From Thermodesulfobacteriota bacterium (GTDB lineage: Bacteria; Desulfobacterota; Desulfobulbia; Desulfobulbales; SURF-16), in the NCBI GenBank assembly GCA_039715015.1, contig JBDLIE010000017.1, positions 1 to 51,018 of the forward strand: DNA of 51,018 bases, in the 5' to 3' direction. Shown here piece after piece: positions 12,119 through 44,925 of the stretch. Positions within the stretch are counted from its first letter, which is position 1, and each line of letters starts with the position of its first letter. Both the position numbers and the translations under genes were made by a program. The notes under the pieces were generated by a model. It was not told the DNA's origin. It made no database searches and worked only from the letters and a program-made list of their open reading frames with translations.

Positions 12119-12140
12119 CGCTGGCGGGTGATACCGCTCT

Positions 12141-12995: not shown

Positions 12996-13051
12996 GATGG
13001 GACGCTCCTGGTGGAATGGCGGTTGATAAATTATGGGCAGTGAATGCCAAA

Positions 13052-14591: not shown

Positions 14592-14645
14592 CCAGGGCCG
14601 CCGAGCTGAGGCCTGCTGGCCACCCCATACGCCAAGGAGGGAAAG

Positions 14646-15529: not shown

Positions 15530-15549
15530 GAAACTCTGCTTTCTGGTCC

Positions 15550-23996: not shown

Positions 23997-25367
23997 ATGG
24001 AAAAGAAAGATGTCATCATAATCGGCGGCGGGATTTCCGGTCTGGCCTGCGCCCATTTTTTAAGGCAGGAGAGGCCTGAGCTCTCAGTGCTCATTGTTGA
24101 GAAATCAGATCATGCCGGCGGCGTCATCCGTTCTCATCACGAGGATGGCTACCTCTGTGAGTGGGGACCCCATGGCTTTCTCGATAACAAGGAAGAGACA
24201 CGGGAGATATTGGCGGACCTCCATCTCATGGCAGACATTCAACGCGCTCCATTGCGGGATTTTCATCGTTTTCTCTGCCGTCATGGCCGGCTCATAGCCT
24301 TGCCTCAGAAGCCTCAGGAGCTTGTCACCTCGAAACTTCTTACTGCCTGGGATAAGCTGCGACTGCTTGGCGATCTCTGGAAAAAGCCCCTGGCCGGCAA
24401 TCCCACCATTGGCCAGTGGGTTGCCTATCGTTTCGGCAAAGGCGTGTTGCCCCTGGTCGATGCGGCCGTTACCGGCACCTTCTCCGGTGATTTTGAGAAG
24501 CTGAGCATGGATGCGGTGATGCCTGGTGTCCGGAAGCTGGAGGCGGAACATGGCTCCCTCTTGCGGGGCCTGAAGAAAAAAGCTGCGGCATCAGAAGAAA
24601 AATCCCTGGCGCCGTTGCCGGCCATGATTAATTTTCCCCAAGGTCTGGAAAGATTGGTGCAGAGTATGGCTGTGGGGCATGATATAAAGACCGGATGCGA
24701 GGTCCATGACCTGGAGCAAAAGGAAGGGGGCTGGCAGCTTGCGACCAGCGCAGGCCCTCTTGTTGCCGATCATGTCATTTGCGCCCTGCCGATGAATAAT
24801 GCCCTGCCGCTTCTCGCCTCTTTTAAAGAGCCGCCAGTGCAAGAGGTGCCTGAGTCGCATATCTGTAACGTCACCCTTGGTTTTGACGATAATGGCGCCA
24901 TCCCCAAGGGGTTCGGCTATCTGGCCCCAGAATGTGAAAACCGCTTTAGCCTGGGTTGCATGTTCACCTCCAGGATGTTTCCGGGCCGGGCCCCCCAGGG
25001 CAAGGTCCTGCTAGAGGCCCTGGTGGGTGGGCGAAGGCACCCCGAACGCCTTGAGTTGGACGACGCCGTGATTGTTAGTCGTGTTGTTGAAGACCTGCGA
25101 CTGTTACTGGACCTGCCCGAAGCCCCGGAGTTTGTCAAGGTGCTGCGACCAAAGAGCGGCATTCCCCAGATGGAAAAAGACCATCTTGACCTCCTGGGCT
25201 GGCGTACCAGCCTGGAACAGGACTACCCCGGACTTTCTATCTGCGGTTTTGGTTGGGATGGGATTGGGATCAACGATATGACCCGGTCCGCACGCCAGGC
25301 TGTGTCAGCAACGTGCCAGGAGAGGAGAGACGAGCAGGATCCTGAGGTGAAACCCGTCTATTTCTAA
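23997..25367 (+). CDS. hemG: HemY-type proto/coproporphyrinogen oxidase
   Basis: IIGGGISGL FAD motif, GGVIRS, EWGPHGF, GFGYL, FPGRAP, IPQ, GIGIND. Confidence 0.9.
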   Translation: MEKKDVIIIGGGISGLACAHFLRQERPELSVLIVEKSDHAGGVIRSHHEDGYLCEWGPHGFLDNKEETREILADLHLMADIQRAPLRDFHRFLCRHGRLIALPQKPQELVTSKLLTAWDKLRLLGDLWKKPLAGNPTIGQWVAYRFGKGVLPLVDAAVTGTFSGDFEKLSMDAVMPGVRKLEAEHGSLLRGLKKKAAASEEKSLAPLPAMINFPQGLERLVQSMAVGHDIKTGCEVHDLEQKEGGWQLATSAGPLVADHVICALPMNNALPLLASFKEPPVQEVPESHICNVTLGFDDNGAIPKGFGYLAPECENRFSLGCMFTSRMFPGRAPQGKVLLEALVGGRRHPERLELDDAVIVSRVVEDLRLLLDLPEAPEFVKVLRPKSGIPQMEKDHLDLLGWRTSLEQDYPGLSICGFGWDGIGINDMTRSARQAVSATCQERRDEQDPEVKPVYF

Positions 25368-28628: not shown

Positions 28629-28661
28629 CTTCCCCTGCACGAGCAGCAGGGGAAGTCTTTT
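28629..28661. terminator. Rho-independent terminator-like hairpin downstream of the T2SS operon
   Basis: CTTCCCCTGC-N7-GCAGGGGAAG followed by TCTTTT. Confidence 0.55.
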
Positions 28662-28789: not shown

Positions 28790-29224
28790 CTACCAACTGC
28801 CGATATCCTTGTCTTCCTTGGTGCCGCCTTCGCGGTTGTCCTTGCCCAGGGTGAAGATGTCTATTTCACCGTACTGGCCTGGGTTCTGGTAATTATAGTC
28901 ACGTTTCCAGGGATCTTGGGGGATGGCCTTGGCAAGGTAGGGGCCGTCCCAATCTTCGATGCCTGGATCGGTGATCAAGGCTGAGATACCCTCATTCGGG
29001 CTGGGAAAGTCGCCGACATCCATGCGGTAGGCGTTCATGGCCGTCATCAGCATCTCAATCTGGGTCTTAGCCGTCTGCTGCTTGGCTTTTCTTACCTGGC
29101 TATAATATTTCGGCACGGCAATAGTGGCGATGAAGCCGAGGATGACCATAACGGCCATCAGCTCCAGTAGTGAAAAGCCATGGTTGTTTAATTTAATATG
29201 TTTATTTTCTTCACGTTTTCTCAC
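28790..29224 (-). CDS. gspG: T2SS major pseudopilin GspG
   Basis: G|FSLLELMAV N-methylation site, YRMDVGDFP, WDGPYL, DPW...Y.YQNPG, GKD...GG...DKDI. Confidence 0.95.
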   Translation of the reverse strand: MRKREENKHIKLNNHGFSLLELMAVMVILGFIATIAVPKYYSQVRKAKQQTAKTQIEMLMTAMNAYRMDVGDFPSPNEGISALITDPGIEDWDGPYLAKAIPQDPWKRDYNYQNPGQYGEIDIFTLGKDNREGGTKEDKDIGSW

Positions 29225-29269
29225 AAGGGCACCTTTTCGTTTGTTGATGGTTCTTACAGGGGGTTGATC

Positions 29270-31519
29270 TTATCTGGTTATGCCGGTGAATGGTCCAGGG
29301 CGGTTTCGGTGAAGCTCCTGGCGCAGCTCACTCATTTTCCCCTGGAATTCATTGATATATTGATCAAGAACATCTTCCGTCTCAATAACATAGGGGGTGA
29401 GCATGATCAGAAGTTCAGTCTTCGTCAGCTGCCGGCTCTCAAACTTGAAGAGATAGCCGAGCAGAGGGATGTCCTTAAGGAGTGGTATGCCGCTGTTGAG
29501 GATGGAGTTGTCCGAGTCGATCAGGCCACCGATGAGGATCGACTGGCCGTTTTTAACGGCAAACTTGGTCTTGAGCTCCTTGGTGCTGATGGGGTTTGAT
29601 TGCACACCTTCCTCCTGAATGGGCAGGGCCTTACTCACAGTCTGGTTAATATCAAGAATGATGATGCCGTCATAGTTGATCTGGGGGGTAACCTCAAGAA
29701 TGACACCGGTATCCTTGTACTGGATGGTCTTGTCGACTTTGGCGGCATCGGCATTATTCTCGGTGACGGTGGTGACAATGGGCACCTCCACGCCAACGTT
29801 GACCGTGGCTGTCTCATTGTTTAAGACCAGGACCTGGGGTGAGGAGAGAATGGAAAGATCAGTCTTGCTAGCCAGGGCCTTGAGCAGGCCCTTGACGCTG
29901 TCACCGCCCTGCACCACAAAATTGATGGCCGTGGAAAGGGAGCTTGTCAGGCCGAAGGTGTCCATACTAAAGGTATATGGTGTGCCGTTATGCGAGCCTA
30001 GCTTGTTATTGAGGATGGCCCACTCCACTCCCAGGGAGAGATCGTCCGTAAGGGTCACCTCTGCCACCATAACCTCCACCAGGACCTGGCGGGGCAGGTT
30101 GTCGAGGCGCTCCAGGAGACGGACAATACGGTTGTAGTCAGGGGGAAGGGCGCGAATCAAAATGATGTTTCTCGTGTCGTCGGCCAGAAGCAGGGGCGTT
30201 CCGGCAAAACGCAGGGAGGAGTGGGCGCCTTTGCCTTTACTGGCGGTGGCCTTTGGGAGGGGTGTCTTTTTTTGGATCTTGTTGGTTGTCGGTTTTTTGG
30301 TGGTGGAGGATCGCTTCTCAGCGCTTTTGCTGGATACTGAGTTGTCTTCTTGAATCAGGTTGTTCACCAGTTCGGCAAGTTCACTGGCCACGGTGTTGCG
30401 GGCATTATAGATGTAGATGTTATCCCGATCCTGGCCGGGCGTGACATCCAATTCCGCTATCCATTTCTCGGCATTTTTCACCAGGAAGTCGCTCCTGCTC
30501 ACCAGCAGCAGGGAGCTGATCCTTTCCAAGGGCTGGATGGCAATTCCTTCAAAATTATTGTTGTTGACATGCAGGGTGTTGAGGATTTCCACCACCTCGT
30601 CGCGCAGGTCAAAAAGAGGGGCGTTTTCCACCTTGACCAGGCGAATTTGCAGGGTGGCCAGGGGAGAAACGTCAAGGCGGGAGAGGATGGTAAGGACATC
30701 AATGATCTTACTTTCATAATCACTGATCAGAAGGGTGTTCTGGTTAGCGATGGTAGAGATGGCCCCTTGTTCAGAGAGGTAAGACTCCACCAGCTTGGTG
30801 GCCTCTTGGGCTGCAAGATGCATGATGGGCACGATCTGCAGGATAAGGCGTGATGAGGGTTGGAGATCGGCAATGTCCGCAGAGTCGTTTACCTGCTGGC
30901 CATAGGGCTTGCGGGCCACGTAGATATAGTTGTGGCTCCCTTCATTACGGATATCCAGGCCGTTCATATGCAGAATTTTTTTGAAAATAGGAAAGAGGTT
31001 CTCACTGGCAATCTTGCGGGCCGAGCGGATGTTGACCACCCCCTTGACCTGGGGATCAATCATATAGTTGAGACCTAAGGCGTCGCCGAGAACCTGGATC
31101 ACCTCATAGATGTCGGCATTGTCAAAGTTGAGGAGCAGGCCGTCCGTACTCTCCTGGTCCAGAGGGGTGAGGGCCTGTTGTTCTTGGGCCAAGACTTCTT
31201 GCCAACTGCCTGGCAGGTGCTTGGAAATCGTCATAAGCTTGTCGAGGGCCGGATTGTTCCCTTGGCCCTCGGCTCTAAAATTCCTGGAGAGTGGCGTGCT
31301 AGCCCCTTCGCCGGGAATTTCTTCCTGAACCAGAAGACTTGAGTTGTCCTCCTGCTTGGTTATCCGCGAACTTATCTCTTTAAGGTCGAGGGTGCGGCTG
31401 GTGTCGTGTTGACCACGATCTGCGCAGCCGCTGGTAATAATAAGCAGGCTGGCCAGAAACAGGAGAAAAAGGCTGCGCCTCAGACCCTTATGAGCAGTTA
31501 TTTTGGTAAGAGTTTTCAT
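29270..31519 (-). CDS. gspD: T2SS secretin GspD (lipoprotein signal)
   Basis: LNFDNADI N0 domain, QVLVEVMVAEV, NNETATVNVG, GQSILIGGL, GIPLLKDIPLLGYLF, TELLIMLTP. Confidence 0.95.
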   Translation of the reverse strand: MKTLTKITAHKGLRRSLFLLFLASLLIITSGCADRGQHDTSRTLDLKEISSRITKQEDNSSLLVQEEIPGEGASTPLSRNFRAEGQGNNPALDKLMTISKHLPGSWQEVLAQEQQALTPLDQESTDGLLLNFDNADIYEVIQVLGDALGLNYMIDPQVKGVVNIRSARKIASENLFPIFKKILHMNGLDIRNEGSHNYIYVARKPYGQQVNDSADIADLQPSSRLILQIVPIMHLAAQEATKLVESYLSEQGAISTIANQNTLLISDYESKIIDVLTILSRLDVSPLATLQIRLVKVENAPLFDLRDEVVEILNTLHVNNNNFEGIAIQPLERISSLLLVSRSDFLVKNAEKWIAELDVTPGQDRDNIYIYNARNTVASELAELVNNLIQEDNSVSSKSAEKRSSTTKKPTTNKIQKKTPLPKATASKGKGAHSSLRFAGTPLLLADDTRNIILIRALPPDYNRIVRLLERLDNLPRQVLVEVMVAEVTLTDDLSLGVEWAILNNKLGSHNGTPYTFSMDTFGLTSSLSTAINFVVQGGDSVKGLLKALASKTDLSILSSPQVLVLNNETATVNVGVEVPIVTTVTENNADAAKVDKTIQYKDTGVILEVTPQINYDGIIILDINQTVSKALPIQEEGVQSNPISTKELKTKFAVKNGQSILIGGLIDSDNSILNSGIPLLKDIPLLGYLFKFESRQLTKTELLIMLTPYVIETEDVLDQYINEFQGKMSELRQELHRNRPGPFTGITR

Positions 31520-31530
31520 GATAGTTTGCT

Positions 31531-32190
31531 TTATGGTTTTTTCACTGTCCGGGTTGTGGGCCGGCGTGCTGGGCTAACACTAGGTTTAAGTTTTTTGGTT
31601 GCCGCCGGCGTTTTTTTGCGTGGAGCCACCTGTCGGCGATTTTTATCAGGATCAAAAAGCATTTTCTTAATAGTATCAGATCCTTTCATAAATAAAATAA
31701 AATCAGTGGCGATCTCTGTGACTGTGTAGCCTCCCAGCTCCTCTCCCACTTCAAGCAGGGTAGTTTTCCTACGGCTCGGGGCCTTGGCTTTTGGCCCGGC
31801 ACGTTTGATCTGAGCCGCTGTTTTTGCCTTGATGAGGTAAGAAACGATGGCCTTTTGGTATCCTTCACCCAGAATGGCACCACTAAAGACGACATCATCC
31901 ATGCGAATATTGTTGCCGTAGCCTTTGCCCGCTTTGCCAGGCTGCGATTCTTTGGCCAGGAAACGTTCGGCGTTAAAAAGGTAGTCACTGTTCAAGTCCG
32001 GCAGGGAGGGCTTGATGGCGGGGTTCAGCTTGAGGGGTTCCTGGATCTTGATTCTTTTTGAACGGTCTTTCTTCGTGGCCTCAACTATGTCTTGCTGCGA
32101 GGCAGGTGTTATCCGAAAGGTGTCAATGTTTGCCTTAATAAGCAGAAGACAGAGGAGGGCAAGGAGGGTTGTTATGGCGGGCTTAACCAT
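31531..32190 (-). CDS. T2SS accessory protein, GspC/GspN-like position
   Basis: Single N-terminal TM, LFNAER, GEELGGYTVTEI beta-rich motif; sits between gspM and gspD. Confidence 0.6.
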   Translation of the reverse strand: MVKPAITTLLALLCLLLIKANIDTFRITPASQQDIVEATKKDRSKRIKIQEPLKLNPAIKPSLPDLNSDYLFNAERFLAKESQPGKAGKGYGNNIRMDDVVFSGAILGEGYQKAIVSYLIKAKTAAQIKRAGPKAKAPSRRKTTLLEVGEELGGYTVTEIATDFILFMKGSDTIKKMLFDPDKNRRQVAPRKKTPAATKKLKPSVSPARRPTTRTVKKP

Positions 32191-32785
32191 TCTTCTTCCT
32201 CCTTATGCTTTTCTTCTTTGCCTTAACGGCTTTGTCTTTGACATCGTAAAAGGCCTTGAGGTCCATGAAGACCTTAACCCCTTTGAGCTTATCCGGCTTA
32301 AGGGTGCAGTTTTCAATCAGGAAAAATTTGTCATTGCGGTACAGGGCAGCCAGAAAGACAGCAAAATTTTCAAGGCTGCCATTGATGCGTAATTTGATAT
32401 TAATGCTCTGAATGCCGCCTTCACGGGTCTTGCCGCCGAGAGGGCGTAAAGATTCCGGCTCAAGGCCAGCCTCGGAAATGAGTGATTGGAGACGGATCTG
32501 AATGGTTGAGGTGATGGTGTCGGCATTCGGGCCCTTGAATAGGACGGCTTCCGCCTTCTTCATCTCGCGCTCAAGCAGGGCCACTTCTTTTTTGAGAGAG
32601 GGCAGCTTGCGGCTACTCTTTAACTGGGCAAAGAGGGTTGCTTCTTTTGTCTCTATTTCAGAAGCCTTTTCCTGATATGCGCCAATTGTGAGGCGTATAA
32701 GGCCGAAACAGAGAAAGAGGCCAGCCAGGCCAACCAGCAGGGTTTTCCTGTCCATATTCAGGAGGGGGGCAAGGGAGAAATTCAT
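32183..32785 (-). CDS. gspM: GspM / PilO-like inner-membrane platform protein
   Basis: TM + coiled coil + ferredoxin-like C-terminus (INGSLENFAVFLAAL); operon position. Confidence 0.7.
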   Translation of the reverse strand: MNFSLAPLLNMDRKTLLVGLAGLFLCFGLIRLTIGAYQEKASEIETKEATLFAQLKSSRKLPSLKKEVALLEREMKKAEAVLFKGPNADTITSTIQIRLQSLISEAGLEPESLRPLGGKTREGGIQSINIKLRINGSLENFAVFLAALYRNDKFFLIENCTLKPDKLKGVKVFMDLKAFYDVKDKAVKAKKKSIRRKKNG

Positions 32786-33927
32786 GGCATGCTCACCTCC
32801 AGGTGGAAATAGGTCTGGTTCCGCCGTTTCAGGGTGGATTTCAGAGTGGCGGAGCCGAGATTGGGAATTTGTGCAGTGAGTTCGTGCAGATCACGGGTGT
32901 ATCCCTGGATGGTGATGGTCTGCGTTTTCTGATCTATGCGGAGCTGATCAAGATAGGCAGTGCTGGGCAGTTTTTTGCTGATGTTGGCCATGAAGGCGAT
33001 GAGATCTTTGTTTGTCCCCATGGCCCGGTAATCGTCCAGCTTGTTTTTCAGCTTCTTGATCCTGGTTTTGAGTTTAAGGGCTGCCTCGGCATCGGCTTTA
33101 GTCGATTCTATCTGGTGATCTATGAGGTTTTCTTGACGATAAAGAGCGATACTCTTGCCAGTGCCAAGGAGAAGGATGAGGATGAGATTGGCGGCTGCCA
33201 GGCCGATCAGGGCTTTCTTGATATAGTCGGGCCTCCGGAAGGAGGGAGGCAACATGTCAAATTCTCTGGCGCTGGCAGTTTGGCCAAGAAGGGCCATGGC
33301 AGATGGTTCGCCGCCCTCAACGTTGCCGAGGCGATACAAGGTGGCGTCACCTGTGCGCTCCCTGATCTGGGCAGCGTTTACCTCGCCTGAACAGATATCC
33401 CGGCCAACTACCTTGCCCTGCTTGAAATGGGTTATTTTGCCGAATCGGCCAGGGCTCCATAGAGACCAGGATGTCTTCCGGTTATCGGCGTTGAGGTAGC
33501 GTTGGCTCTCTGGGTAGAGACCAATAAGATGGGCACCTGCCTCAAAAAGTATGTGTAAAAAAGGGAAGATCTGTGATCTCCTGCAGAAATAGAGAGTGAT
33601 CGAGTAGCCCTCTTTGCTGCGTTTTGACCTAAAGGTATAGAGGCTGTCTCCCCCAAAAGGACTGAGCATGTCGAGCTGGAGGGCGATGGCTTTTTTCAGA
33701 TCAGGGGTCTGGCGGGGCAGAGTGATCTGGGTGAAGAAAAGAAGCTCCTCGGCGAGATAGACGTCAACGTCCGCCCCGGCCAGGGCAGGGCAGTTCTCAA
33801 GCTTGGGAATGGCCTTGGCAAAGGCTGTGCTGTCGGCGGAAAGGTCTTTGGTTTGATAGCCCTCAGCGCTTTGCCAGCCAATGGCGGTGGAGGCGCTTTT
33901 TAGGAAGATGTCAAGACGTTTGCTCAT
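32782..33927 (-). CDS. gspL: GspL / PilN-like protein
   Basis: Cytoplasmic domain (LPRQ..DLKKAIALQLDMLSPF), TM, PilN-like LPSTAYLDQL...ITIQG; ATGA overlap with gspK. Confidence 0.75.
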   Translation of the reverse strand: MSKRLDIFLKSASTAIGWQSAEGYQTKDLSADSTAFAKAIPKLENCPALAGADVDVYLAEELLFFTQITLPRQTPDLKKAIALQLDMLSPFGGDSLYTFRSKRSKEGYSITLYFCRRSQIFPFLHILFEAGAHLIGLYPESQRYLNADNRKTSWSLWSPGRFGKITHFKQGKVVGRDICSGEVNAAQIRERTGDATLYRLGNVEGGEPSAMALLGQTASAREFDMLPPSFRRPDYIKKALIGLAAANLILILLLGTGKSIALYRQENLIDHQIESTKADAEAALKLKTRIKKLKNKLDDYRAMGTNKDLIAFMANISKKLPSTAYLDQLRIDQKTQTITIQGYTRDLHELTAQIPNLGSATLKSTLKRRNQTYFHLEVSMP

Positions 33928-34892
33928 GACCATTCCTCCTGCCAGCCGTAGTAGTTCAGTTTTATGTCGTTTTTTTCAAAGAGGACAGTGACCTTGGTCC
34001 CTGGCCGCTCATCTGTCTCCTGGTTTTCTTCCTGAAGTCCGGCATAGCCTGTAGCGGTTACCGTGTAGAAAGGCACCTTATTGTCAGAGTAGGTGAGAAA
34101 ATCGGCGCATTGCTGGTAGCGGTCATTGTCCAGAACGAGTTGGGCCTCCACTACAGAGAGGTCGCCCTGATTTTCACGTAGTTCATGGTAGGTGGCGATC
34201 TTGTCCGGGTCGTTTTCGGTGAGGAAGGCCAGCATGGCAGGGCTCAGGCTGTTGAAGTTTATTTTCCCCTTTGGGTTATGGACGGTGAAGGTCTCAGAGA
34301 TTTTTATCATGTCCCCGATCTTTTCAGCACCGCGGATTAGGTTCAGTTCACTGACCTCAATGAGCTTGCCGTTTCGAGCCCGGTACGGGGGCTCTAATTC
34401 CTGGTAATATTCATCTTCAGCGCCCTGCAGACGGTGGAGGTTGTCGGCGTCCCGCCAGTCCTCAAGGGAGTCGGTAAGGGTGGCCAGTTCATCATCCTCC
34501 ATGCCGAGAAAATCACCAAAGGTAGTGAGGAGATGACGGCTGGCGCCATTAAGATCTATTTTCCCTGATTCGTTGACCAGCACGTAAGCCAGCCGACCTG
34601 TGTCCAGGGTAATCTCATGTTCTTTACCCAGATAGGTGAAGGTGATTTGCTCATCGTCAATGTCCAGGGGAGTGTCAAGAAGGGTAAAGAGCGCCTGGTT
34701 AATGCCGCCGTGGGCCAAGGCCCGGCCCACAAGGCGTTGCCTGGTATTGAAACCCTCCAGGGTGCCGACCCGCACGGCAAAGGTCAGCTCCGCAGCGAGA
34801 ACCGTTACCAGAAGCAGGATAAGAATCACCACCACCAGGGCAAAGCCGGAGGAGTGTTGGTTGTTCTTGCTGGGTGGACGAAGGAGGGTCAT
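33924..34892 (-). CDS. gspK: T2SS minor pseudopilin GspK
   Basis: G|FALVVV, ESGKIDLN, DWRDAD, GAEDEYY, ELNLIRG, GKINFN. Confidence 0.92.
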   Translation of the reverse strand: MTLLRPPSKNNQHSSGFALVVVILILLLVTVLAAELTFAVRVGTLEGFNTRQRLVGRALAHGGINQALFTLLDTPLDIDDEQITFTYLGKEHEITLDTGRLAYVLVNESGKIDLNGASRHLLTTFGDFLGMEDDELATLTDSLEDWRDADNLHRLQGAEDEYYQELEPPYRARNGKLIEVSELNLIRGAEKIGDMIKISETFTVHNPKGKINFNSLSPAMLAFLTENDPDKIATYHELRENQGDLSVVEAQLVLDNDRYQQCADFLTYSDNKVPFYTVTATGYAGLQEENQETDERPGTKVTVLFEKNDIKLNYYGWQEEWS

Positions 34893-34914
34893 GGTCTCTT
34901 AGTAGTTTTTTTTG

Positions 34915-35241
34915 TTATTTCCTTTGAAGCTGCAGGCTTTGTAACAAGCCCGTTTCACTGGTGGCAATAGAAAGCGTGTAGGTGGTTCCTTCCAGGAAGA
35001 TCTCGTTGTCATTTTCTTCATAATCCAGGGCTGGGCCTCTATATTTGATGTTTTCCGTCATAACGGCGTCCTGGCTAAAGAAAAACTCCAGCTTCTCTTC
35101 CATTTTATTGAGACGATGCATGGAGGATGAAAAGCTCTCAAGCACAGCCACATAGCTCAGGCCAAGAAGAAGCACGGCTGTCATCACCTCAAGGAGGGTA
35201 AAGCCTTTAGCACTGTTATTGTAGCGAAAAAACTCAGCCAT
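34915..35241 (-). CDS. Minor pseudopilin (GspI-like)
   Basis: G|FTLLEVM prepilin motif, 108 aa. Confidence 0.8.
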   Translation of the reverse strand: MAEFFRYNNSAKGFTLLEVMTAVLLLGLSYVAVLESFSSSMHRLNKMEEKLEFFFSQDAVMTENIKYRGPALDYEENDNEIFLEGTTYTLSIATSETGLLQSLQLQRK

Positions 35242-35834
35242 CAGCTAACCTCCAGCACTTCCGGCGCACACCAGGGCCTGAATTCATAAGTCTGATCAAT
35301 ATAAATGAGGGTCACGGTATTGCTCTCCTCATCAAAATCAAGGGATAATCCTCGCGGCACTGTGATTAAGGCCATCATATCACTGTAGTCTGGGATCAGC
35401 TCCGTGTAGTCGGGGTTATAAAAATCCTTTTTCTCCAAATAATAGAGGGTGTTTTCCTCTGGGTTGTAGCGGTAAAAGGCCATTACTACTTGGCCTGTTC
35501 GTGCCTGGAACGGGGTGGCTGTGGCCAGGCGTAAAAGGTCTTTTCTACCGGAAATGAGGACTTTTCTAGTAGTGGTTGGGTTTCGCCAGCCACTCTGCAC
35601 CTGGCGCTGGAGCAGGGAGACAAGGGCGTAATGCTCTTCGATCTCCCGGCTTTTATTTTCACCCTTGCCGGCAAAGAAAATGGAGCGGTTAAGCATGGAG
35701 TAGATCATGCCTGAGGCGATGGTGAGAAGGAGCATGGCCACCATAACCTCAAGGAGGCTGAGGCCAGTTTGGTTTTCCTGAATGGTCGGTTCATTACAGG
35801 GAAATGTGTAGTGTAGGTGCCGGTCTTGTTTCAT
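35241..35834 (-). CDS. Minor pseudopilin (GspJ-like)
   Basis: G|LSLLEVMVAM prepilin motif, 197 aa. Confidence 0.8.
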   Translation of the reverse strand: MKQDRHLHYTFPCNEPTIQENQTGLSLLEVMVAMLLLTIASGMIYSMLNRSIFFAGKGENKSREIEEHYALVSLLQRQVQSGWRNPTTTRKVLISGRKDLLRLATATPFQARTGQVVMAFYRYNPEENTLYYLEKKDFYNPDYTELIPDYSDMMALITVPRGLSLDFDEESNTVTLIYIDQTYEFRPWCAPEVLEVS

Positions 35835-35848
35835 TTCTTTCAGTGTCC

Positions 35849-35926
35849 GTAGGAGCTCACCCCTGTGAGCGATAGGAGGGTGAGCAAAAGATCGTCTCTT
35901 TATCGCCCGGAGGGCCGGGCTCCTAC
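35849..35926. repeat. GTAG-family REP doublet (REPIN-like), copy 1
   Basis: GTAGGAGCTCACCCCTGTGAGCGAT ... ATCGCCCGGAGGGCCGGGCTCCTAC; second copy at 49579-49661. Confidence 0.85.
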
Positions 35927-35938
35927 ATCAATTAATTC

Positions 35939-36352
35939 TCATATTTTGTTTGGTTGGCCGGTGAGGGGGTTGATTTGTAGTGTCCGGTGCCGTTCGTTGC
36001 TGCTTATTTCAATGGTGGCCGGGGTGGCCCAGCCTTCAGGAGAAAAGAAGATGCGTTCCGGCTCCATGGCCAGGGTTACTCCCGGTTTAAATGGTTTCAC
36101 CACCTTCGCCCCTTGGGCAAGTTGGACCATCAAGACATCTTCTTCCAGGGTTACTGTTACTGGTTTTCCCTGACTCACCGCCATGAGCTTCCAGCCCCGG
36201 ACCTGGGCCATGACCTCGTTGACCTCCTTGCGGAAGGTGATCTTGGCGAGCATGTTGGTCACCGGTGGGGCGGCAATCACCATGGCCAAGGCAACAATGG
36301 CCATGGCAGCCAGAATCTCAAAAAGTGAAAAGCCATGCTCCCTGGTCTTCAT
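35939..36352 (-). CDS. Minor pseudopilin (GspH/FimT-like)
   Basis: G|FSLFEILAAM, AVSQGKPV, IFFSPEG, INPLTG. Confidence 0.85.
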   Translation of the reverse strand: MKTREHGFSLFEILAAMAIVALAMVIAAPPVTNMLAKITFRKEVNEVMAQVRGWKLMAVSQGKPVTVTLEEDVLMVQLAQGAKVVKPFKPGVTLAMEPERIFFSPEGWATPATIEISSNERHRTLQINPLTGQPNKI

Positions 36353-36355
36353 TTA

Positions 36356-37567
36356 TCAACCTGTAATATCGTTCATGCCCAAAATAACCCCGAGCATGGA
36401 TAAAACAATATAGCCGGCCCCAAAGGACATGATCAGCAAAAAGGCCGGTTCCACCAAGGCGATAAAACGTTTGAGCCGTTCTTTAAGCTGTTTCTCAAAA
36501 TGTTGGGCGATCTGGCCGCAGGTTTCGCCAACCCGGCCCGACTCCTCACCAATTGCCAGCAGGTCAACGGCCAGATCAGGGATCAGATTGCCGTGCAGTT
36601 TGGGCGCCACCTGTTGTCCTTCTTTTAGGGCCACCGTGGCCCTGGCCAGCAGTTCTTTGTAATGACGGTTGGTGGCAACACCAGCACTGATCCGCAGGGC
36701 TGTGACCAGATGGACACCGTTTTTGACCAGCACCTCCAGGGTCCTGAAAATACGGGTGGTTTCAATATCACGCACAAATCCCTTGAGAACCGGAAACTTG
36801 ATGGCCATATCGTCAAAACTTTGCTGGCCCCGCTCGCTCTTGGCATAGAAAAAGAGGAGGGCGGGCAGGCCAGTCAGGACAAGAAGGGTCAGTAGGAGGT
36901 GGCTGCTCATAAAATCAGCAATTGCCATGAGCATAGCCACGTTCATGGGCAGCTCTTTGCCCATGCCCTCAAAGAGCACCTTGAAACGGGGCAGGATAAC
37001 GGTGAACAGAACAATGAGGATGCCAAAACCGGCGGTGAGCAGGATCAGGGGATAGATGGAACTTGAGATGACAAACTGGCGAAGTTCCCTGGCCTGGGCC
37101 TGGTAGTCCGCAATATTGTCAAGCATCTCCGGCAGCACGCCGCCTTCCTCACCGGCCTTGACAATATTGGCGTACATGGAGTTGAAGGCAGGTTCCTCCA
37201 ACAGGGCGGTGGACAGGGCCAACCCTTCTTTTAACTTGTTTTCCAAGCGGATGGCGAAATCCCGCAGCTCCATTTTTTCTGTCTGCTTGGCGATGAGGCG
37301 CAGGGCGCCATCCAGGGACATGCCGCCTTTAACCAGCAGGGCAAGCTGGGAGGTGAAAAATTCTATATCAGCGCTTTTCAGCCGCCCGCTGCGCATCTTG
37401 GCGCCGGCAAAGAGGGAGCTGCTCTTCTTCTTTTCATAAGGCGCAATACTAAAGGGGCGCAGACCCTGGCGAAGCAGAAGCTGGCTGGCGGTGTGAATGT
37501 CATCACCTTCGATGACCCCCTCGGTTACACCTTCAGGAGATTGGGCCTGATACTTAAACAATGGCAT
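36356..37567 (-). CDS. gspF: T2SS inner-membrane protein GspF
   Basis: MPLFKYQA start, AGEEGGVL, SIYP, IGEESG, LVEP. Confidence 0.93.
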   Translation of the reverse strand: MPLFKYQAQSPEGVTEGVIEGDDIHTASQLLLRQGLRPFSIAPYEKKKSSSLFAGAKMRSGRLKSADIEFFTSQLALLVKGGMSLDGALRLIAKQTEKMELRDFAIRLENKLKEGLALSTALLEEPAFNSMYANIVKAGEEGGVLPEMLDNIADYQAQARELRQFVISSSIYPLILLTAGFGILIVLFTVILPRFKVLFEGMGKELPMNVAMLMAIADFMSSHLLLTLLVLTGLPALLFFYAKSERGQQSFDDMAIKFPVLKGFVRDIETTRIFRTLEVLVKNGVHLVTALRISAGVATNRHYKELLARATVALKEGQQVAPKLHGNLIPDLAVDLLAIGEESGRVGETCGQIAQHFEKQLKERLKRFIALVEPAFLLIMSFGAGYIVLSMLGVILGMNDITG

Positions 37568-39272
37568 TTTCCATCTCCCTGGCCACACGCATGACCTCCG
37601 GCAGAGTGGTCATGCCGGCGCGGGCCTTATCGAGGCCGTCAATGAACATCTCTGTAAAGCCGTGCTTACGGGCCACCTCTTCAAGTTTTTTAAGGTCTTC
37701 ACCCCGCGAGATACAACCGCAGAGGTCGCTGTTCATGGTGAGTAGTTCGTAGATCCCCATCCGACCGATAAAGCCAGTGCCGGCGCAGTGCTTACATCCC
37801 TTGCCGGCAAAGGTCTGAAAATCGCCGCCACCAGGCACCGCACCCAACTGCTCAGCGGCTGTGCCCTGTTCAGTTCGGCAATTGGGGCAAATTTTCCTGA
37901 CCAGGCGCTGGGCCAGAATTCCCCGTAATGCTGAGGAGATGAGAAAACGCTCGACACCAAGATCCACCATGCGCATCACGGCAGACAAGGCATCGTTGGT
38001 GTGGAGGGTGGAAAAAACCAGGTGGCCGGTGAGGGAGGACTGTACGGCAATTTCAGCAGTTTCCAGATCGCGGATTTCACCCACCATGATGATGTCCGGG
38101 TCCTGGCGGACAATAGCGCGCAGTCCCTGGGCAAAGGTGAGGCCGATCTCCGGTTTGATCTGTATCTGGTTGATGCCGTGGAGCTGGTATTCCACAGGGT
38201 CTTCAATGGTGATGATCTTGTTGGAGCCGGTATTGATCTTGTGAAGGGCGCAGTAGAGGGAGGTCGTCTTACCGGAACCAGTGGGGCCGGTGACCAGGAT
38301 GATGCCGTTTGGCAGGTTGATCAGTTCTTCAAACTCATGCTCCAGTTTTGGAGGCATGCCCAGGCTGCTGAGGTCAAGGATGATGCTGGTCTTCTCCAGA
38401 ATACGGATGACTATCCCCTCGCCGTGGATGGTGGGCAGGGTGGAGACACGCAGGTCCACCTCTTTACCGCTGAGGCGCAGCGAAATCTTGCCGTCCTGGG
38501 GCACCCGGCGTTCGGCAATATCGAGACCGGCAAGGAGCTTGACCCGGGAGATAATGGCGGCCTGCATGGAGCGCAGCGGAGTTTCATGGTCATAGAGAAC
38601 ACCGTCAATCCGGAAGCGTACCAGCTGACCATCCTCAAAGGATTCAATATGGATATCTGAGGCCCGACGGTCCAAGGCAGTATCCACCAGGTTGTTAACA
38701 TAGCGGATAACAGGAGCCTCGGAGGCCATGTCTTTAAGTTTATCGACATCCGCCTCATCCAGGGAAAGTTGTTCTGATTCCGGCTTGTTGAAGCCAAGAT
38801 CATAATGGTCGTCACAGAGGGTGCGCAATTCTGCTTCGGCCATGAGCTCAATGGTAAAATAGTCAGCGGCAGGCGGGGGAGAGTCGGCCTCCTGCTGGGC
38901 ATGAAGGAGCTGCAGGCTTATTTCAGCGGCATTAATGATCTCGCTATTTTCCGGGCTATGGGTGATGAGAATAACCTCATCGTCGCGCTGGACAAGAGCA
39001 AAGGGGTGGCCTTGATGAAAGATCTTCGGTAGCTCAACAGGCAGAAAAATTTCTGATTCCTGGGGGTGGTAGAGCTTAAGGTCGAGCTGCTCAGCCTGAG
39101 CGATCAAGATATCCTGACTGCTGACAAAGCCAAGGGAGACAATGATCTCAGCAAGGCTTTGGGGGACGGTCTCAAGATGGGCCACGGCGCGGTCGAGCTG
39201 CTCCGGGCTTATTTTGCCGCTGTTGATCAACAGCGGTCCGAGGTCGTCTTTTTTTGTGAAGATAACGGTCAT
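37554..39272 (-). CDS. gspE: T2SS ATPase GspE
   Basis: ASDIHIE, GPTGSGKTT, TIEDPVE, RQDPDIIMVGEIRD, LHTND, CPNC/CKHC zinc motif. Confidence 0.96.
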   Translation of the reverse strand: MTVIFTKKDDLGPLLINSGKISPEQLDRAVAHLETVPQSLAEIIVSLGFVSSQDILIAQAEQLDLKLYHPQESEIFLPVELPKIFHQGHPFALVQRDDEVILITHSPENSEIINAAEISLQLLHAQQEADSPPPAADYFTIELMAEAELRTLCDDHYDLGFNKPESEQLSLDEADVDKLKDMASEAPVIRYVNNLVDTALDRRASDIHIESFEDGQLVRFRIDGVLYDHETPLRSMQAAIISRVKLLAGLDIAERRVPQDGKISLRLSGKEVDLRVSTLPTIHGEGIVIRILEKTSIILDLSSLGMPPKLEHEFEELINLPNGIILVTGPTGSGKTTSLYCALHKINTGSNKIITIEDPVEYQLHGINQIQIKPEIGLTFAQGLRAIVRQDPDIIMVGEIRDLETAEIAVQSSLTGHLVFSTLHTNDALSAVMRMVDLGVERFLISSALRGILAQRLVRKICPNCRTEQGTAAEQLGAVPGGGDFQTFAGKGCKHCAGTGFIGRMGIYELLTMNSDLCGCISRGEDLKKLEEVARKHGFTEMFIDGLDKARAGMTTLPEVMRVAREMENAIV

Positions 39273-39414
39273 AGGGCAGGTGGTGGTTTCTATCTCATTA
39301 TATGAGCTAAACGGTTGTTTCTGTTTACCATTCCCTCAACAATTAACAACAGGAAAGAGACATGAAGCAGTTTGTGGCCCTTAAGGATGGGCTCAGAATG
39401 CGCTTAATAAAGAC

Positions 39415-39430
39415 AGCATGTTCTGTGCCA
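39415..39430 (-). promoter_or_regulatory. Sigma-54 (-24/-12) promoter of the T2SS operon
   Basis: Minus strand TGGCACAGAACATGCT: GG-N10-GC, ~140 bp upstream of gspE. Confidence 0.65.
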
Positions 39431-39648
39431 GCAGGCAGGCGTGAATGTCGTCCTTAAGGGATCCATTTCTTATAATCCCCTATTTATACAATAAAAATCA
39501 AGGGGGAGTGTGCTGGAGGCATCATGTAGCTCCCGTCGCGTCCCTGGATCACCATATTACAGCAAAATATTCATAGTTTTATTCCTAGGAAGATCAGAAT
39601 GTTACGGCATAAAAGTCAACAAGAGAACAGGATTTTAGGGAGCAAGGC

Positions 39649-39677
39649 TTGACCTTAAAAAGAAAAATTACTACTTT
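39649..39677 (+). promoter_or_regulatory. Sigma-70-type promoter of the repeat-protein pair
   Basis: TTGACC-N17-TACTTT, ~55 bp upstream of ATG 39731. Confidence 0.5.
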
Positions 39678-39730
39678 GCCGGCCAGCAATTTAACTAAAC
39701 AACTTAACTCTTAATTACCAGCAAAGAGGA

Positions 39731-40897
39731 ATGATAATGTTCGAAAAGGCGAAAATAACAGGGTTGCTTGTTGCTCTCGTTGTCTGGGTGGCAGCCCTTC
39801 CGGCCCGGGCAGATCTCACTGTGGATCTGCAGAATTTGGTGGCAGAGGGGAGTGCGATAAACAGCAGTCTCACTTTTTTTAGTTTTACTGACCAGTCCTG
39901 CAGCGATCTCGGTCTTGTGAACGGGGACCTTGAAAATCTTGCCGCCACTGCCCAGGCTGTTACAGCCGGCTTGACCAATCCTCTCACTATCAGCACAGAA
40001 GATCTCGATTCCTTAGACAGCCTTTCCGGCATGGCAAAGGAAATGTCTTTGAACTCAGTGAGATTGAGCATGGAGCTCCAGGATATTGAAGAGGTTGCCG
40101 AACTTTTTGAGTACCGGGCTGCATTGAGCGCCATGCTGGAGCTGTCGGACGATATCGGCAGCATGGCTGATCGTATCTTAGAGATGGCCGACCGTATCCT
40201 GGCCATGGCCGACAATATCGGTGCTATGGCCGACCGTATCCTCATCACCCAGCAAATCCAGAACGCCAATATCGCCCTGACCCAGGCCTCTCTGCTTACC
40301 ACCCAGCAGAACATGGTGCTCCTCAGCCAGAGCGTCTCATCTATCATATATAATGTGAGCTTGGCTCTGGTTGTTTCTGACAGCAACAATCTCCTCGATG
40401 ACATGGCCGTACTTACTATCACCTCGGAAAACATGGCTCAGGAGCTTGACCGCCTGGAGGTAGGTACCAGTCTTCTTCTTACTGGGGTTGTTGATCTCTA
40501 CACCTGGATGAGTGTCAGCAGTCAGGGCGCCAGTCATTATATTAATGGTGACACCCTAACTTCCTTAGGTGATCTCTCAAATATCTACTCAGGCCTTGCC
40601 TTTTCTTTGGAAACCTATGCCGCCAGCATCAATCAGCTTGCGCCGCTCACCGACACCGTAATCCTCGCCGATGCCACGGCGTCAATGTTGCGGCTCAGTG
40701 CCGATATTGGCCTCATGGCCGGCAGGATAATGGAGATGGTGGATAAGATTATTGCCATGGCAGACAATATTGGCCTGATGGCCGATAATATTGTTGCCAC
40801 CCAGGAGCTTCAGCAGACCAATATAGAACTCACGGAAAGCTCTCTTCTTACGGCCCAGAATGTCACTATAACTACTATCAAGAATATGGGCCTGTAG
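39731..40897 (+). CDS. Secreted alpha-helical hypothetical protein A, duplicated domain with MAD(R/N)I heptad repeats
   Basis: Sec signal ending ARA; DDIGSMADRILEMADRILAMADNIGAMADRILITQ and a second diverged copy; AGAGGA RBS. Confidence 0.9.
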   Translation: MIMFEKAKITGLLVALVVWVAALPARADLTVDLQNLVAEGSAINSSLTFFSFTDQSCSDLGLVNGDLENLAATAQAVTAGLTNPLTISTEDLDSLDSLSGMAKEMSLNSVRLSMELQDIEEVAELFEYRAALSAMLELSDDIGSMADRILEMADRILAMADNIGAMADRILITQQIQNANIALTQASLLTTQQNMVLLSQSVSSIIYNVSLALVVSDSNNLLDDMAVLTITSENMAQELDRLEVGTSLLLTGVVDLYTWMSVSSQGASHYINGDTLTSLGDLSNIYSGLAFSLETYAASINQLAPLTDTVILADATASMLRLSADIGLMAGRIMEMVDKIIAMADNIGLMADNIVATQELQQTNIELTESSLLTAQNVTITTIKNMGL

Positions 40898-40920
40898 GCG
40901 CCTTGCATTCGGAGAAAAAA

Positions 40921-42087
40921 ATGAAAAGATTAATGCAATACTCTTTGATGATCGTTGTTCTGATGGCGGCAGTGGCCCTGCCGCAACAATCCCGGGCCAC
41001 TGTCACAAGCGATGTCCAGGCTCTGGTTGCAGAGGCTCATGCCCTGCAGAGCCGGCTTGTTGGCACCCAGGTCACCCCTGGTGCCATTTGTGCGCCGCTG
41101 GTAAGCGCGGGCCAGGCAGCCCGGAGCATGGTGAAAAGCATTGAGTCTGTTAACAGCGGCCTGGTGGCACCCCTCACCATTGATGATGGTCTGATGACCG
41201 CCTTGGAGGATCTTTCTCTGGCCAATGTCCAGATTGGTGATGAGGCGTTACGTCTGGCTATGGATGTTCAGGTTTTGGCTCCCAGCGTCGATGCCCTGTC
41301 CATCAAAGATGGCCTGACTGCCATGCTGCAGCTCTCTGATGATATCGGCGCCATGGCGGATCGTATTGGTGAAATGGCGGATAATATCCTTGTCATGGCC
41401 GATAACATCGGCATCATGGCTGATCGTATTTTGTTGACCCAGCAGATCCAGAGCCAGAACCTGGCCCTCACCCAGCAGTCCATTCTTCAAACCCAGACCA
41501 ATATGCTCACTCTGGTGTCAGTGGTGGAAACAGCAACCTATGATCTTGATTTGAATACGCTGATTATCCAGGGTGAATTACTTGCTGCTGATCTGGCCGC
41601 CACTGTTTTTAGTCCTTTTACTATCAAGTATCAGCTTGCTGGTGCTGCGGCTGATGTTAACAATTTTCTGGCCCAGGTAAAGGCCATGGAGGAGAGCCTG
41701 AAGGCGGTGAGCGCCGGCAGTACCGTGACGGTGGACAGTAGCACCCTGACCAGCCTGGTGAACCTGTCCAGCATGGCCACCTCGGTTTCCACGGTTTTAG
41801 ATGGTTACATCCTGGTCATTCAGAGTATGCAGGCAATGATTTTTGACCGCAACCTCGATGCTTCCTTGTCCAGTATGCTTGCCATGTCTGCCGATATCGG
41901 CATGCTTGCCAATTCGATTCTGGAGATGGCGGATCTTATTTTGGTAATGGCGGACAATATCGGTCTGGCCGCTGAGCAGATTATTCTCACCCAGCAACTG
42001 CAAAGCGGTTATCTGGCCATCAGTCAGGCCTCTATTCTGGCAACCCAGGAAATGGCTATAGGGATAATCGTGGCCCAGAATTTGTAA
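40921..42087 (+). CDS. Secreted alpha-helical hypothetical protein B, paralog of protein A
   Basis: GGAG before ATG 40921; signal ending SRA; DDIGAMADRIGEMADNILVMADNIGIMADRILLTQ plus second copy. Confidence 0.9.
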   Translation: MKRLMQYSLMIVVLMAAVALPQQSRATVTSDVQALVAEAHALQSRLVGTQVTPGAICAPLVSAGQAARSMVKSIESVNSGLVAPLTIDDGLMTALEDLSLANVQIGDEALRLAMDVQVLAPSVDALSIKDGLTAMLQLSDDIGAMADRIGEMADNILVMADNIGIMADRILLTQQIQSQNLALTQQSILQTQTNMLTLVSVVETATYDLDLNTLIIQGELLAADLAATVFSPFTIKYQLAGAAADVNNFLAQVKAMEESLKAVSAGSTVTVDSSTLTSLVNLSSMATSVSTVLDGYILVIQSMQAMIFDRNLDASLSSMLAMSADIGMLANSILEMADLILVMADNIGLAAEQIILTQQLQSGYLAISQASILATQEMAIGIIVAQNL

Positions 42088-42140: not shown

Positions 42141-42179
42141 AAAAAAAGCGCCTTGTTCATATATGAACAAGGCGCTTTT
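42141..42179. terminator. Bidirectional terminator between protein B and tRNA-Arg
   Basis: Perfect 36-bp palindrome AAAAGCGCCTTGTTCATATATGAACAAGGCGCTTTT (42144-42179) with A/T tracts on both sides. Confidence 0.85.
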
Positions 42180-42187
42180 GTCGTTTC

Positions 42188-42264
42188 TGGTACACCAGGC
42201 AGGATTCGAACCTGCGACCCCATGATTCGTAGTCATGTACTCTATCCAGCTGAGCTACTGGTGC
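42188..42264 (-). tRNA. tRNA-Arg(ACG)
   Basis: GCACCAG acceptor, TAGCTCAGCTGGATAGAG D-arm, anticodon loop CTACGAA, GGTTCGAATCC, encoded CCA; 77 nt. Confidence 0.97.
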
Positions 42265-42660: not shown

Positions 42661-44925
42661 CTACCAGACTGACCGTAGGCCCTGTTTTTTCCTGATCTGG
42701 TCGATTCGTCTCTCCAAATCAATGCGCCAGTTGGCATGGATGCGTGCCCCTGAAGGGCCGATGAGTTCCGGCAATCCGTAGACAAGACGGTCAGCGGCCC
42801 GGCTTGCCTCAATCACTGCTTCAATGGAGCGGGCCCCGAATTTGTACTGGGCCAGGAGGAGGCGCAGGAGGAGCCCCGATGTCTTTCTGGCCGCTTTCTT
42901 CCAGTGGGTGTCCATCTGGTGGGCAATGATGAAGGCCCTCTTTAAAAGAATACGGCGCAGGTCTTCCAGTTCAACAGCAGTTGCGGAATCACGGAGCAGG
43001 TCCTCAGGGATTTCGATACCGTCAATATCAAGAACCACTCTCAGCCGGCTCATGAAATCCGGTATCTTCAACGTCTTGGCCTGCTGCAGTTCGGCAGAAT
43101 CTTCAGTGCTAAGCAACGCCTCCATTCCTTCCCAGTTAGATTTGACCCCGCCGGCAAAGACGAAAATGGAACGGCCGATATAGTAGGGGGTGCCATGGAC
43201 ATAGGTGACCCCGTCCTGCATGGAGGGCAGGAAATAGCGGAGATAGCCGAACTCGTTGTTGTTGTAGCGGCAGTCAAACTCGTCCCAGAAGGTGATGGGC
43301 ACCTTGCCCTGGGCGACCGAGGCGCGGATGAGGTCAATGGATGAGTTGATTTCGTTAGGGTCTGAAAACTGGGTGAGGTTGAACTCGAAGAAGTCAAAGG
43401 GGTCGGTATCAAATTTTTTGCCGATCACCCGCGCTACTTCCTTAACGGAAAAAGATTTCCCGGAGCCTGGAGGGCCAAAGACGCCGATACATAAAGGACG
43501 TTGAAAACTTTCCTTGCTGACATAGGAGTCCATGACGGACTGCAGGGTGAGGACCGGACCGATTTCTGCCGGGTCTGTGGTGCGAAGATGGCCGATATTG
43601 TACATGCGCAGGGTCTCGAAACCGCTCTTGTGGCTCACCTCATCTTTGAGATAATGAAGGACCTCAAGGATGACATCCATATAGCCGTGGCTGCCCGTGA
43701 AGGTAGCGCCGATCTTGGCTCTTTTCGCTTGATCAAAAAAGGAGCGCAGACCCTGGCGTTTATCGGCATCCCATATCTGGCTGGAAACTTTTTCCAGGCT
43801 GCGGTCAAACTCCGGTGAAAAGGTGGGGAGTTCAATGAAGAAAGGGTCATAGTCTTCATCGCTATCGCAGCAGTCGTCACCAAGATAATCACTGCTCAGA
43901 TCCAGGGAGGGGAACTCAAGGGTGTCGGAAAAATAATAGCCATGCTCATAAAGCCAGTGCCAGTTAGCCAGAACCTTCTTCGACAAGACCAGGGAATGGC
44001 AGCGGCCAGATATCAGGGATTTTGAGCGGATAAATTCCATGGCCAGCATGGAGGTGACCAGGGTGTCGTAGGCTGGTACCGAGCCCTTCTGGCGCGGGGA
44101 GCTTTTTTCCGGCAGGCTTCCTCCCCGATGGCGGAAGTAGACGTTGTCCGGGGTGATAGAGAGCAGGCCATGGGGAAACATCTCCACCATGATATGGCAG
44201 CGAAAACGCTGCGCTCTGGCATCCCAGAGGCCGACCTCCGGAGAGCGCAGGGCGCGCAAAGACATAGCGACAATGGACTCCCAGACCACCGAGCTGTCCA
44301 TCTCCATCCGGGTAGTTTCCAGGTCGGAAAGGCGGGCAAAGAGCATGAAATTCTCACCAAACTCTTTGGCCCAATCGGCCCAGTGGGCCACACTGATCCC
44401 CATGGCAATGACCCAGGCCTTGGGGTTTGCTTTTTTAAGATCGGCAGAGACCTGGGGTGGTCGGCCGCCATCATCAATGATCAAAATACCGTCATGACCG
44501 CTGAGTTCTTCACTGTTTTCCTCGGTGAAGGCGAAGGATTGCTCGTCATCGCCACGTCCGGCATAGGGCAGGATCTGGTGGACCATGAACCAGCCGTGGT
44601 CCTTCTCAATCTCGGGGCGTTGATATTTTCGGAAAATCTGGAAGATGTCTTTCTGTTCGCCATAGGTGAAGGTGGTGATCTTCGGGGAAAGATTGGCTGA
44701 GGTAAGGTAGGCGGCAAGCCAGGTCAAACACTGATCAAGGCGGCCATTTTCCACCTCCACCTTGCCAGCCAGCAGCTCGACAAAATCACCGGGATTGTAG
44801 CCATAGGCAGGCAGGCTGCCCTCTTCAAGGAGGCTGACCTCCTTAATAGCAATATTGCGGATCTTAACGTTTGATCCTAAAAAAAGAATTTTCTGAGATG
44901 TTTCTTCCTGTGGTTGTTTCGGCAT
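42661..44925 (-). CDS. Uncharacterised AAA+ ATPase with large unassigned N-terminal region
   Basis: GPPGSGKS Walker A, ITFWDEFD Walker B, FVFAGG, PDFMSRL, GARSIE. Confidence 0.85.
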   Translation of the reverse strand: MPKQPQEETSQKILFLGSNVKIRNIAIKEVSLLEEGSLPAYGYNPGDFVELLAGKVEVENGRLDQCLTWLAAYLTSANLSPKITTFTYGEQKDIFQIFRKYQRPEIEKDHGWFMVHQILPYAGRGDDEQSFAFTEENSEELSGHDGILIIDDGGRPPQVSADLKKANPKAWVIAMGISVAHWADWAKEFGENFMLFARLSDLETTRMEMDSSVVWESIVAMSLRALRSPEVGLWDARAQRFRCHIMVEMFPHGLLSITPDNVYFRHRGGSLPEKSSPRQKGSVPAYDTLVTSMLAMEFIRSKSLISGRCHSLVLSKKVLANWHWLYEHGYYFSDTLEFPSLDLSSDYLGDDCCDSDEDYDPFFIELPTFSPEFDRSLEKVSSQIWDADKRQGLRSFFDQAKRAKIGATFTGSHGYMDVILEVLHYLKDEVSHKSGFETLRMYNIGHLRTTDPAEIGPVLTLQSVMDSYVSKESFQRPLCIGVFGPPGSGKSFSVKEVARVIGKKFDTDPFDFFEFNLTQFSDPNEINSSIDLIRASVAQGKVPITFWDEFDCRYNNNEFGYLRYFLPSMQDGVTYVHGTPYYIGRSIFVFAGGVKSNWEGMEALLSTEDSAELQQAKTLKIPDFMSRLRVVLDIDGIEIPEDLLRDSATAVELEDLRRILLKRAFIIAHQMDTHWKKAARKTSGLLLRLLLAQYKFGARSIEAVIEASRAADRLVYGLPELIGPSGARIHANWRIDLERRIDQIRKKQGLRSVW

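Follow-up and report, generated by a model that had tools for sequence, protein, structure and literature searches.

Accessory type II secretion systems (T2SSs) with adjacent cargo are known, as in the Pseudomonas Hxc system with LapA, and ClyA, YaxAB and Hbl-Nhe are alpha-pore-forming toxins with a membrane-inserting hydrophobic hairpin. Both comparisons had been raised by a first-pass annotation of the locus described here, which lies in the window (the whole 51,018-nucleotide stretch analysed, from contig JBDLIE010000017.1 of the Thermodesulfobacteriota assembly GCA_039715015.1) and consists of two tandem genes, A and B, divergent from a T2SS operon. Closest by predicted fold are the fungal Mp1p/HsbA-type proteins, whose domain consists of five helices around a fatty-acid cavity and occurs twice in tandem in Mp1p; for HsbA, adsorption to hydrophobic polyester and recruitment of cutinase are described (PMC13537970). 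Our tentative reading, to which we give a little less than an even chance, is that A and B would form an exported heterodimer of Mp1p/HsbA-like bundles binding hydrophobic ligands or surfaces.

A predicted bundle of about 165 residues from the pair superposes on the fungal Mp1p/AfMp4p/HsbA structures (5j5l, 5j5k, 6j6f, 5ecf, 5e7x and 6zpp) with Z scores of 14-16 and root-mean-square deviations (rmsd) of 2.1-2.5. Mp1p has two tandem domains per chain, as is predicted for the modules of A and B, and the pair, like the fungal proteins, is very probably secreted. Unlike HsbA and Mp1p, the pair is bacterial, forms an obligate two-paralog cassette, and carries a strict Met-heptad hairpin and one invariant Cys per chain; it shares 8-12% identity with them without a Pfam HsbA match, and is a putative ligand binder.

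Sequence, distribution and predicted fold of the pair

The two genes are as follows.

39731..40897, plus strand: subunit A, 388 residues as called (probable start at the next ATG, giving 386 residues); signal peptide, two repeat modules and invariant Cys57
40903..42087, plus strand: subunit B, 394 residues if begun at a TTG (the ATG at 40921 is the probable start); organised like A, with one invariant Cys

The first-pass annotation had described two tandem paralogs of about 390 residues with Sec signal peptides, an acidic helical composition and no named family, and these points held. A and B are 37% identical over 375 columns, and both bear signal peptides of the A-x-A type, judged by inspection and conserved across homologues. 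The mature proteins carry net charges of -36 (A) and -26 (B) and are rich in L, A, S, T and I, with 5% Met and little Lys. In each chain a module of about 180 residues occurs twice, and both copies contain a helical hairpin built on a Met heptad, with exact 7-residue periodicity. A Cys at an equivalent position in A and B is invariant among homologues (90/90 for A, 81/81 for B) and is the sole Cys in 87 of the A and 79 of the B sequences; because each of two co-exported partners thus has a lone Cys, an inter-chain A-B disulfide is the simplest reading, and we lean slightly towards its existence from this pattern. The covariation signal in the pair alignment was dominated by the split between A and B.

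The family is unnamed in every curated library searched (Pfam and NCBIfam): nothing scored over cut-off and the only match, to DUF7162, was sub-threshold. Pfam HsbA was unmatched by A or B at E 0.01, and when 81 B members were searched at E 1 it was not in the best 25 of 57 families. The PDB sequence search with the pair returned designed coiled coils only, PHROGs gave a single weak match to an unnamed family, the plasmid search gave no match and the ESM Atlas no usable match. Literature searches, which left out subscription papers and bioRxiv supplements, found no paper on the family. Among 71 upstream regions there was no common sigma-54, sigma-28 or Fur motif, and a loose c-di-GMP riboswitch pattern occurred in two and an FNR pattern in one.

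That the two proteins belong together, as had been suggested, is borne out by the gene order: of the 93 full-length A genes that have sufficient DNA downstream, 92 are followed by a full B; L034:3840-5068 is the sole locus where B is no full open frame. No conserved neighbour of the pair was found among the loci scanned. Strong conservation of the pair extends over four groups of about phylum rank, which consist mostly of sulfur-cycling bacteria; named records include Thiovibrio sp. JS02 and Thioalkalivibrio sp. ALJT, and record titles place it in Desulfurivibrionaceae, Desulfocapsa, Sulfurovum, Sulfuricurvum, Thioalkalivibrio, Thiohalomonas, Acidiferrobacterales, Hydrogenophilales, Geobacteraceae, Trichlorobacter, Desulfuromonadaceae and many unassigned Gammaproteobacteria; by the same titles, most of the named hosts are sulfur oxidisers, reducers or disproportionators. 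An order-wide count of 401 genomes found the pair in 17, a one-module form alone in 11 and weak fragments in two. At lower ranks it is patchy as well, with 8/43 in one family, 5/25 in genus g45 and 0/9 in genus g15.

The wider family (381 clusters at 50% identity) includes one-module secreted forms and chains of three to five repeats, in which mainly the core hairpin, itself repeated 3-5 times per chain, can be aligned. Nine single-module relatives have lipobox-like starts and long tethers, P0401 has four core repeats and ends in RTX repeats, and the Cys is missing in 31 of 37 single-module forms of about 200 residues. Two divergent two-module relatives, P0319 and P0341, were also seen, the former with Cys at 63 and 127, possibly an intramolecular staple. 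L162:517-2418 encodes a 634-residue lipoprotein in which an extracellular-type domain is fused with Met-heptad hairpins and, at the C-terminus, with a region very rich in Met, and the one-module forms at L164, L165 and L167 have low-complexity tails rich in Met/Gly or Met/Pro. A separate unnamed family, found in Campylobacterota (L168-L172 and L175), comprises proteins of 320-650 residues with tandem 'DAYKFAS'-like repeats followed by a Met-heptad hairpin; these have no evident signal peptide and several adjoin rpsR.

Modelled with a pooled alignment of 150 sequences of A and B, subunit B gave a predicted local distance difference test score (pLDDT) of 85.8 and a predicted template modelling score (pTM) of 0.56. 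Its ten helices form two tandem five-helix modules, and the Met-heptad corresponds to the helix 4-5 hairpin, inside a self-contained five-helix bundle. Foldseek with this model returned 6zpp as the sole compact match. When module 1 was compared with 48,161 chains by VIA-align, the best compact match was AfMp4p (5j5l; Z 15.8-15.9, rmsd 2.1-2.2, 144/152 residues aligned), followed by Mp1p (6j6f, Z 14.7-15.4), 5ecf (14.8) and 6zpp (14.1); the subsequent compact natural chains scored near 10.5. As modelled, module 1 of B would thus have the Mp1p/HsbA five-helix bundle fold; every solved example of it among the present matches is a secreted fungal protein that binds lipids or surfaces.

Proposed binding role and competing explanations

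In the reading that we favour, A and B constitute a free-standing two-gene cassette in a variable slot between a tRNA-Arg gene and the host's single T2SS operon. Very probably exported by Sec to the envelope or beyond, the two proteins would then quite probably associate, more likely than not through a disulfide, as a heterodimer with four five-helix bundles, predicted to be Mp1p/HsbA-like; this heterodimer would act at the cell envelope by binding molecules or surfaces that are hydrophobic. The RTX and tethered lipoprotein relatives point, by their sequences, to an outward or envelope location, and whether A and B would pass through the general T2SS as general clients we consider evenly balanced. 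Extracellular binding of lipids or hydrophobic solids by the pair, if real, would extend HsbA/Mp1p biology to bacteria and make the pair a candidate for the means by which chemolithotrophs in sediments contact their substrate. A more far-reaching version, in which the pair would be a bacterial counterpart of HsbA/Mp1p, a T2SS-exported, disulfide-stapled four-bundle heterodimer with which sulfur-cycling bacteria coat hydrophobic solids, for example elemental sulfur (S0), or extract material from them, is improbable; if true, it would offer a testable handle on contact between cells and S0.

Several points weigh against the favoured reading. The AlphaFold model of A, made from 40 close sequences with the signal peptide included, was poor (pTM 0.30), and Foldseek with it returned nothing at E 0.001. 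The fold match covers module 1 only, identity of the module to the fungal domains is the 8-12% given above, helical bundles may, according to the documentation of the tool, score Z near 14 without known kinship, and function is not given by a common fold. Positions conserved at 90% or more number 31/70 in helices H4-H5 and 3/78 in H1-H3, with a concentration also in H9-H10; only the Met-heptad hairpin shows conservation of the strongest degree, a pattern that would suit a self-assembly role as well. As for the slot, no integrase, att duplication or duplicated tRNA end was found there. Lastly, once 111 informative loci had been collapsed to 60 contexts, T2SS neighbours of the pair occurred in two to three independent lineages (L012, L030 and L093) versus 0.41 expected, with P of 0.065 (two cases) or 0.009 (three) for one operon per genome, so that chance alone may not explain the adjacency. 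Allowing three operons per genome raised P to 0.35 and 0.13, respectively, and we regard pair-gsp adjacency elsewhere as a hint and no rule.

The same conservation bears on the alternative that A and B co-polymerise, through their periodic Met-heptad hairpins and with Cys staples, into a surface layer, sheath or filament. The concentration of conserved positions in H4-H5 and H9-H10, the exact heptad periodicity, the acidic, Lys-poor composition, the strict, stoichiometric A-then-B pairing and the repetition of the hairpin 3-5 times in single chains are all suggestive of such a polymer, which we nevertheless consider unlikely: the confident model would bury the hairpin within a self-contained five-helix bundle, and A and B have ordinary codon usage (55th-75th percentile), unlike that of a very abundant structural protein.

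A second alternative draws on the sulfur metabolism of most named hosts and on the lone invariant Cys, and supposes that the pair carries or activates S0: its Met-rich hydrophobic bundles would hold S8 or polysulfide and the Cys would form a persulfide. Activation of S0 by thiols of surface proteins is described for acidophiles (PMC10045233). The patchy occurrence within genera and across the order and the frequent absence of Cys from the short single-module forms speak against this carrier, and so does expression of a relative. P0218, a protein named from Sulfurovum indicum, is identical to that encoded at L158, whose neighbours as read are a CDP-alcohol phosphatidyltransferase, a cytidylyltransferase, a phosphoglycolate phosphatase and an FAD oxidoreductase; because this gene order equals that of IMZ28_RS05700-05720 in the supplement of PMC10045233, we infer that the P0218 gene is IMZ28_RS05710. 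This gene is expressed, and the values given there for it are lower on S0, at 601 vs 1230 in oxidation (2.0-fold) and 840 vs 2632 in reduction (3.1-fold), as are those of the genes beside it (PMC10045233), and the expression of this one-module relative counts against an S0-induced role. Passages of PMC12998232 name YTD and MOLY clusters, and the pair is not among them. The Chlorobaculum tepidum S0-globule proteins CT1305 and CT1320.1, which PMC12132484 presents as poorly characterised envelope proteins said to be common to Geobacter spp., are comparable with the pair in that the latter also occurs in Geobacteraceae and Trichlorobacter records, whereas no Chlorobiaceae are among the pair's named matches; rows for CT1305 were not found in the PMC12285230 supplement. 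On balance we view the S0 carrier as quite improbable.

The ClyA/YaxAB-like pore that had been suggested earlier has in its favour the adjoining, paralogous, all-helical subunits of similar length, about 390 residues, and a patchy distribution compatible with a competition trait. Yet a two-component alpha-helical toxin of the ClyA/YaxAB/Hbl type has become very unlikely. The best compact match of the model is the small fungal Mp1p/HsbA bundle, here predicted to be repeated twice by internal duplication; ClyA and YaxAB chains were absent from the top 50 matches for the B model, although a match to an elongated ClyA-type bundle could lie further down, and A and B gave no Pfam, NCBIfam or PDB-sequence match to the ClyA/YaxAB/Hbl family. 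Hydropathy reveals no hydrophobic membrane hairpin: maxima over 19-residue windows are 1.6-1.7 in A and B, no stretch exceeds 1.7, and values above 1.8 occur in 1/90 A and 1/81 B homologues, although amphipathic pores could escape such a scan. The proteins are also strongly acidic and have no conserved immunity-like neighbour.

Met-rich periplasmic metal binders are known, and a pair with 5% Met, invariant Met residues and signal peptides might be a Cu(I)/Ag(I) sponge retained in the periplasm. We hold this to be an equally slim prospect, since no copper or heavy-metal genes were present among 78 neighbours scanned, the RND pumps near eight loci resemble multidrug types as judged from sequence, and the RTX and tethered lipoprotein forms point outward.

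The T2SS operon and the tRNA-Arg slot

The eleven-gene T2SS operon reported by the first-pass annotation was confirmed at 28790-39272, in the order gspE-F-H-J-I-K-L-M-C-D-G and with intergenic gaps of -35 to 104 nt.

37554..39272, minus strand: gspE ATPase; Pfam/NCBIfam profile matches, N-terminal MshE-like c-di-GMP motif just below cut-off
36356..37588, minus strand: gspF; Pfam/NCBIfam profile matches
35939..36352, minus strand: gspH-like minor pseudopilin; profile matches
35241..35834, minus strand: gspJ-like minor pseudopilin; N-methylation motif alone
34915..35241, minus strand: gspI-like minor pseudopilin; profile matches
33924..34892, minus strand: gspK; Pfam over cut-off, single copy in the genome
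32782..33933, minus strand: gspL; position and weak PilN match
32183..32785, minus strand: gspM; profile matches
31531..32190, minus strand: gspC; position and weak GspC_delta match
29270..31519, minus strand: gspD secretin; the genome's only over-cut-off GspD
28790..29224, minus strand: gspG major pseudopilin; profile matches

As in the general T2SS (GspC-M), all eleven core genes are present, and GspD (TIGR02517, 403 vs a cut-off of 351), GspG (TIGR01710, 145 vs 89) and GspK (PF21687, 61 vs 26) pass curated cut-offs. The best matches of GspE, GspF and GspM fall below NCBIfam cut-offs while PF00437, PF00482 and PF10741 are over theirs, and GspC and GspL are assigned from weak matches (E 2e-4 and 4e-4) and position. 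The prepilin peptidase gene is not part of the operon. The gene order is common across the host family, and identical in 8/8 fetched regions as far as each extends, and the operon is an ordinary member of its kind. The MshE-related motif of GspE scores 37 vs a cut-off of 38 bits; this match suggests c-di-GMP control of the window T2SS. An HD-domain gene lies at 25364-27133.

The divergent layout, for which about 460 bp had been given and 458 nt were measured, together with Sec-signal proteins beside a gsp operon, recalls Hxc/LapA, and gsp-type genes are similarly close to the pair in three further loci: in L030 (Thioalkalivibrio) the pair lies downstream of, and is codirectional with, a T2SS operon, in L012 it is 4 kb from one, and in L093 it is divergent from gspF/gspE-like genes. 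That the window T2SS is an accessory system dedicated to the adjoining pair and co-regulated with it from the divergent promoter is nonetheless highly improbable, for this is the genome's only T2SS, it is conserved in relatives without the pair, and its linkage to the pair is not conserved. The host genome, a 99.99% complete assembly, has one GspK, one over-cut-off GspD and no second T2SS. When GspK was sought in 48 chosen relatives, of which 28 have a family member and 20 have none, it was matched in 46, including 19 of the 20 family-less ones at E<=1e-70. A general lack of neighbouring T2SSs among homologues had been named beforehand as what would refute a dedicated system; homologues do generally lack a T2SS neighbour, gsp-type matches being near 4/55 genome and 2/80 metagenome two-module loci (6/135, many contigs being short), and two of the six (L003 and L068) are close kin of the window. 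An orphan ATPase lies near the pair in L037.

GspK occurs in 30 of 50 pair-bearing genomes. Among the other 20, seven have GspD over cut-off, five a full-length GspD just below it, five a strong partial one and two GspG; one metagenome-assembled genome (G448) has none of the three proteins. Because T2SS components are found in nearly all 50, T2SS export of the pair is possible almost everywhere; the machinery is equally common without the pair. The window T2SS is the host's ordinary, family-wide system; it is no accessory system and, in the majority of genomes, is not linked to the pair.

The slot itself is delimited by the following features.

39273..39730, no strand: divergent intergenic region between gspE and A, 458 nt; gspE-proximal part alignable to pair-less relatives
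42144..42179, no strand: 16-pair bidirectional terminator common to B and the convergent tRNA
42188..42264, minus strand: tRNA-Arg(ACG), found by Rfam; marks the variable slot

In two genomes of the same genus (G134 and G149) the tRNA-Arg gene and gspE are separated by about 500 nt and the slot is empty, without the pair, and in a third (G173) it holds a CheB/CheR gene. The pair occupies it in the window and in L003, and in L068 it is joined there by a 425-residue open reading frame. Other genera of the host family have unrelated genes upstream of gspE, and family-mates G144 and G169 carry the pair and GspK on separate contigs. Since slot contents vary, other genera differ and the two are unlinked in G144 and G169, pair-T2SS adjacency is a derived, genus-level state; a tRNA-adjacent variable slot is able to mimic a dedicated secretion-cargo locus. 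Beyond the window's kin, a tRNA lies within 600 nt of the pair in two lineages only (L023 and L079), so that tRNA targeting is not general.

Nor did the earlier notion of a block closed by terminators stand. The hairpin at 42144-42179 is also the terminator of the overlooked tRNA-Arg, that at 28629-28655 has its T-tail on the plus strand, opposite to the direction of the gsp genes, and terminator-like sites in the region are not enriched (18 observed vs 17.3 in shuffled sequence); the closed block is therefore no evidence for a single functional unit. The Rfam search of the locus returned the tRNA only.

On the far side of the tRNA-Arg, a minus-strand gene at 42661-44925 encodes a 754-residue protein with a weak AAA/bpMoxR match and no NCBIfam or PHROGs family, a fragment of which (86% identity) lies at the equivalent position in G134. 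In the latter genome, an MtrB/PioB porin gene and an adjoining probable multiheme cytochrome gene are also found near tRNA-Arg (L148:279-3333). Finally, positions 1001-16000 of the window have a GC content of 56-64%, compared with about 50% elsewhere in it, and may be an island.

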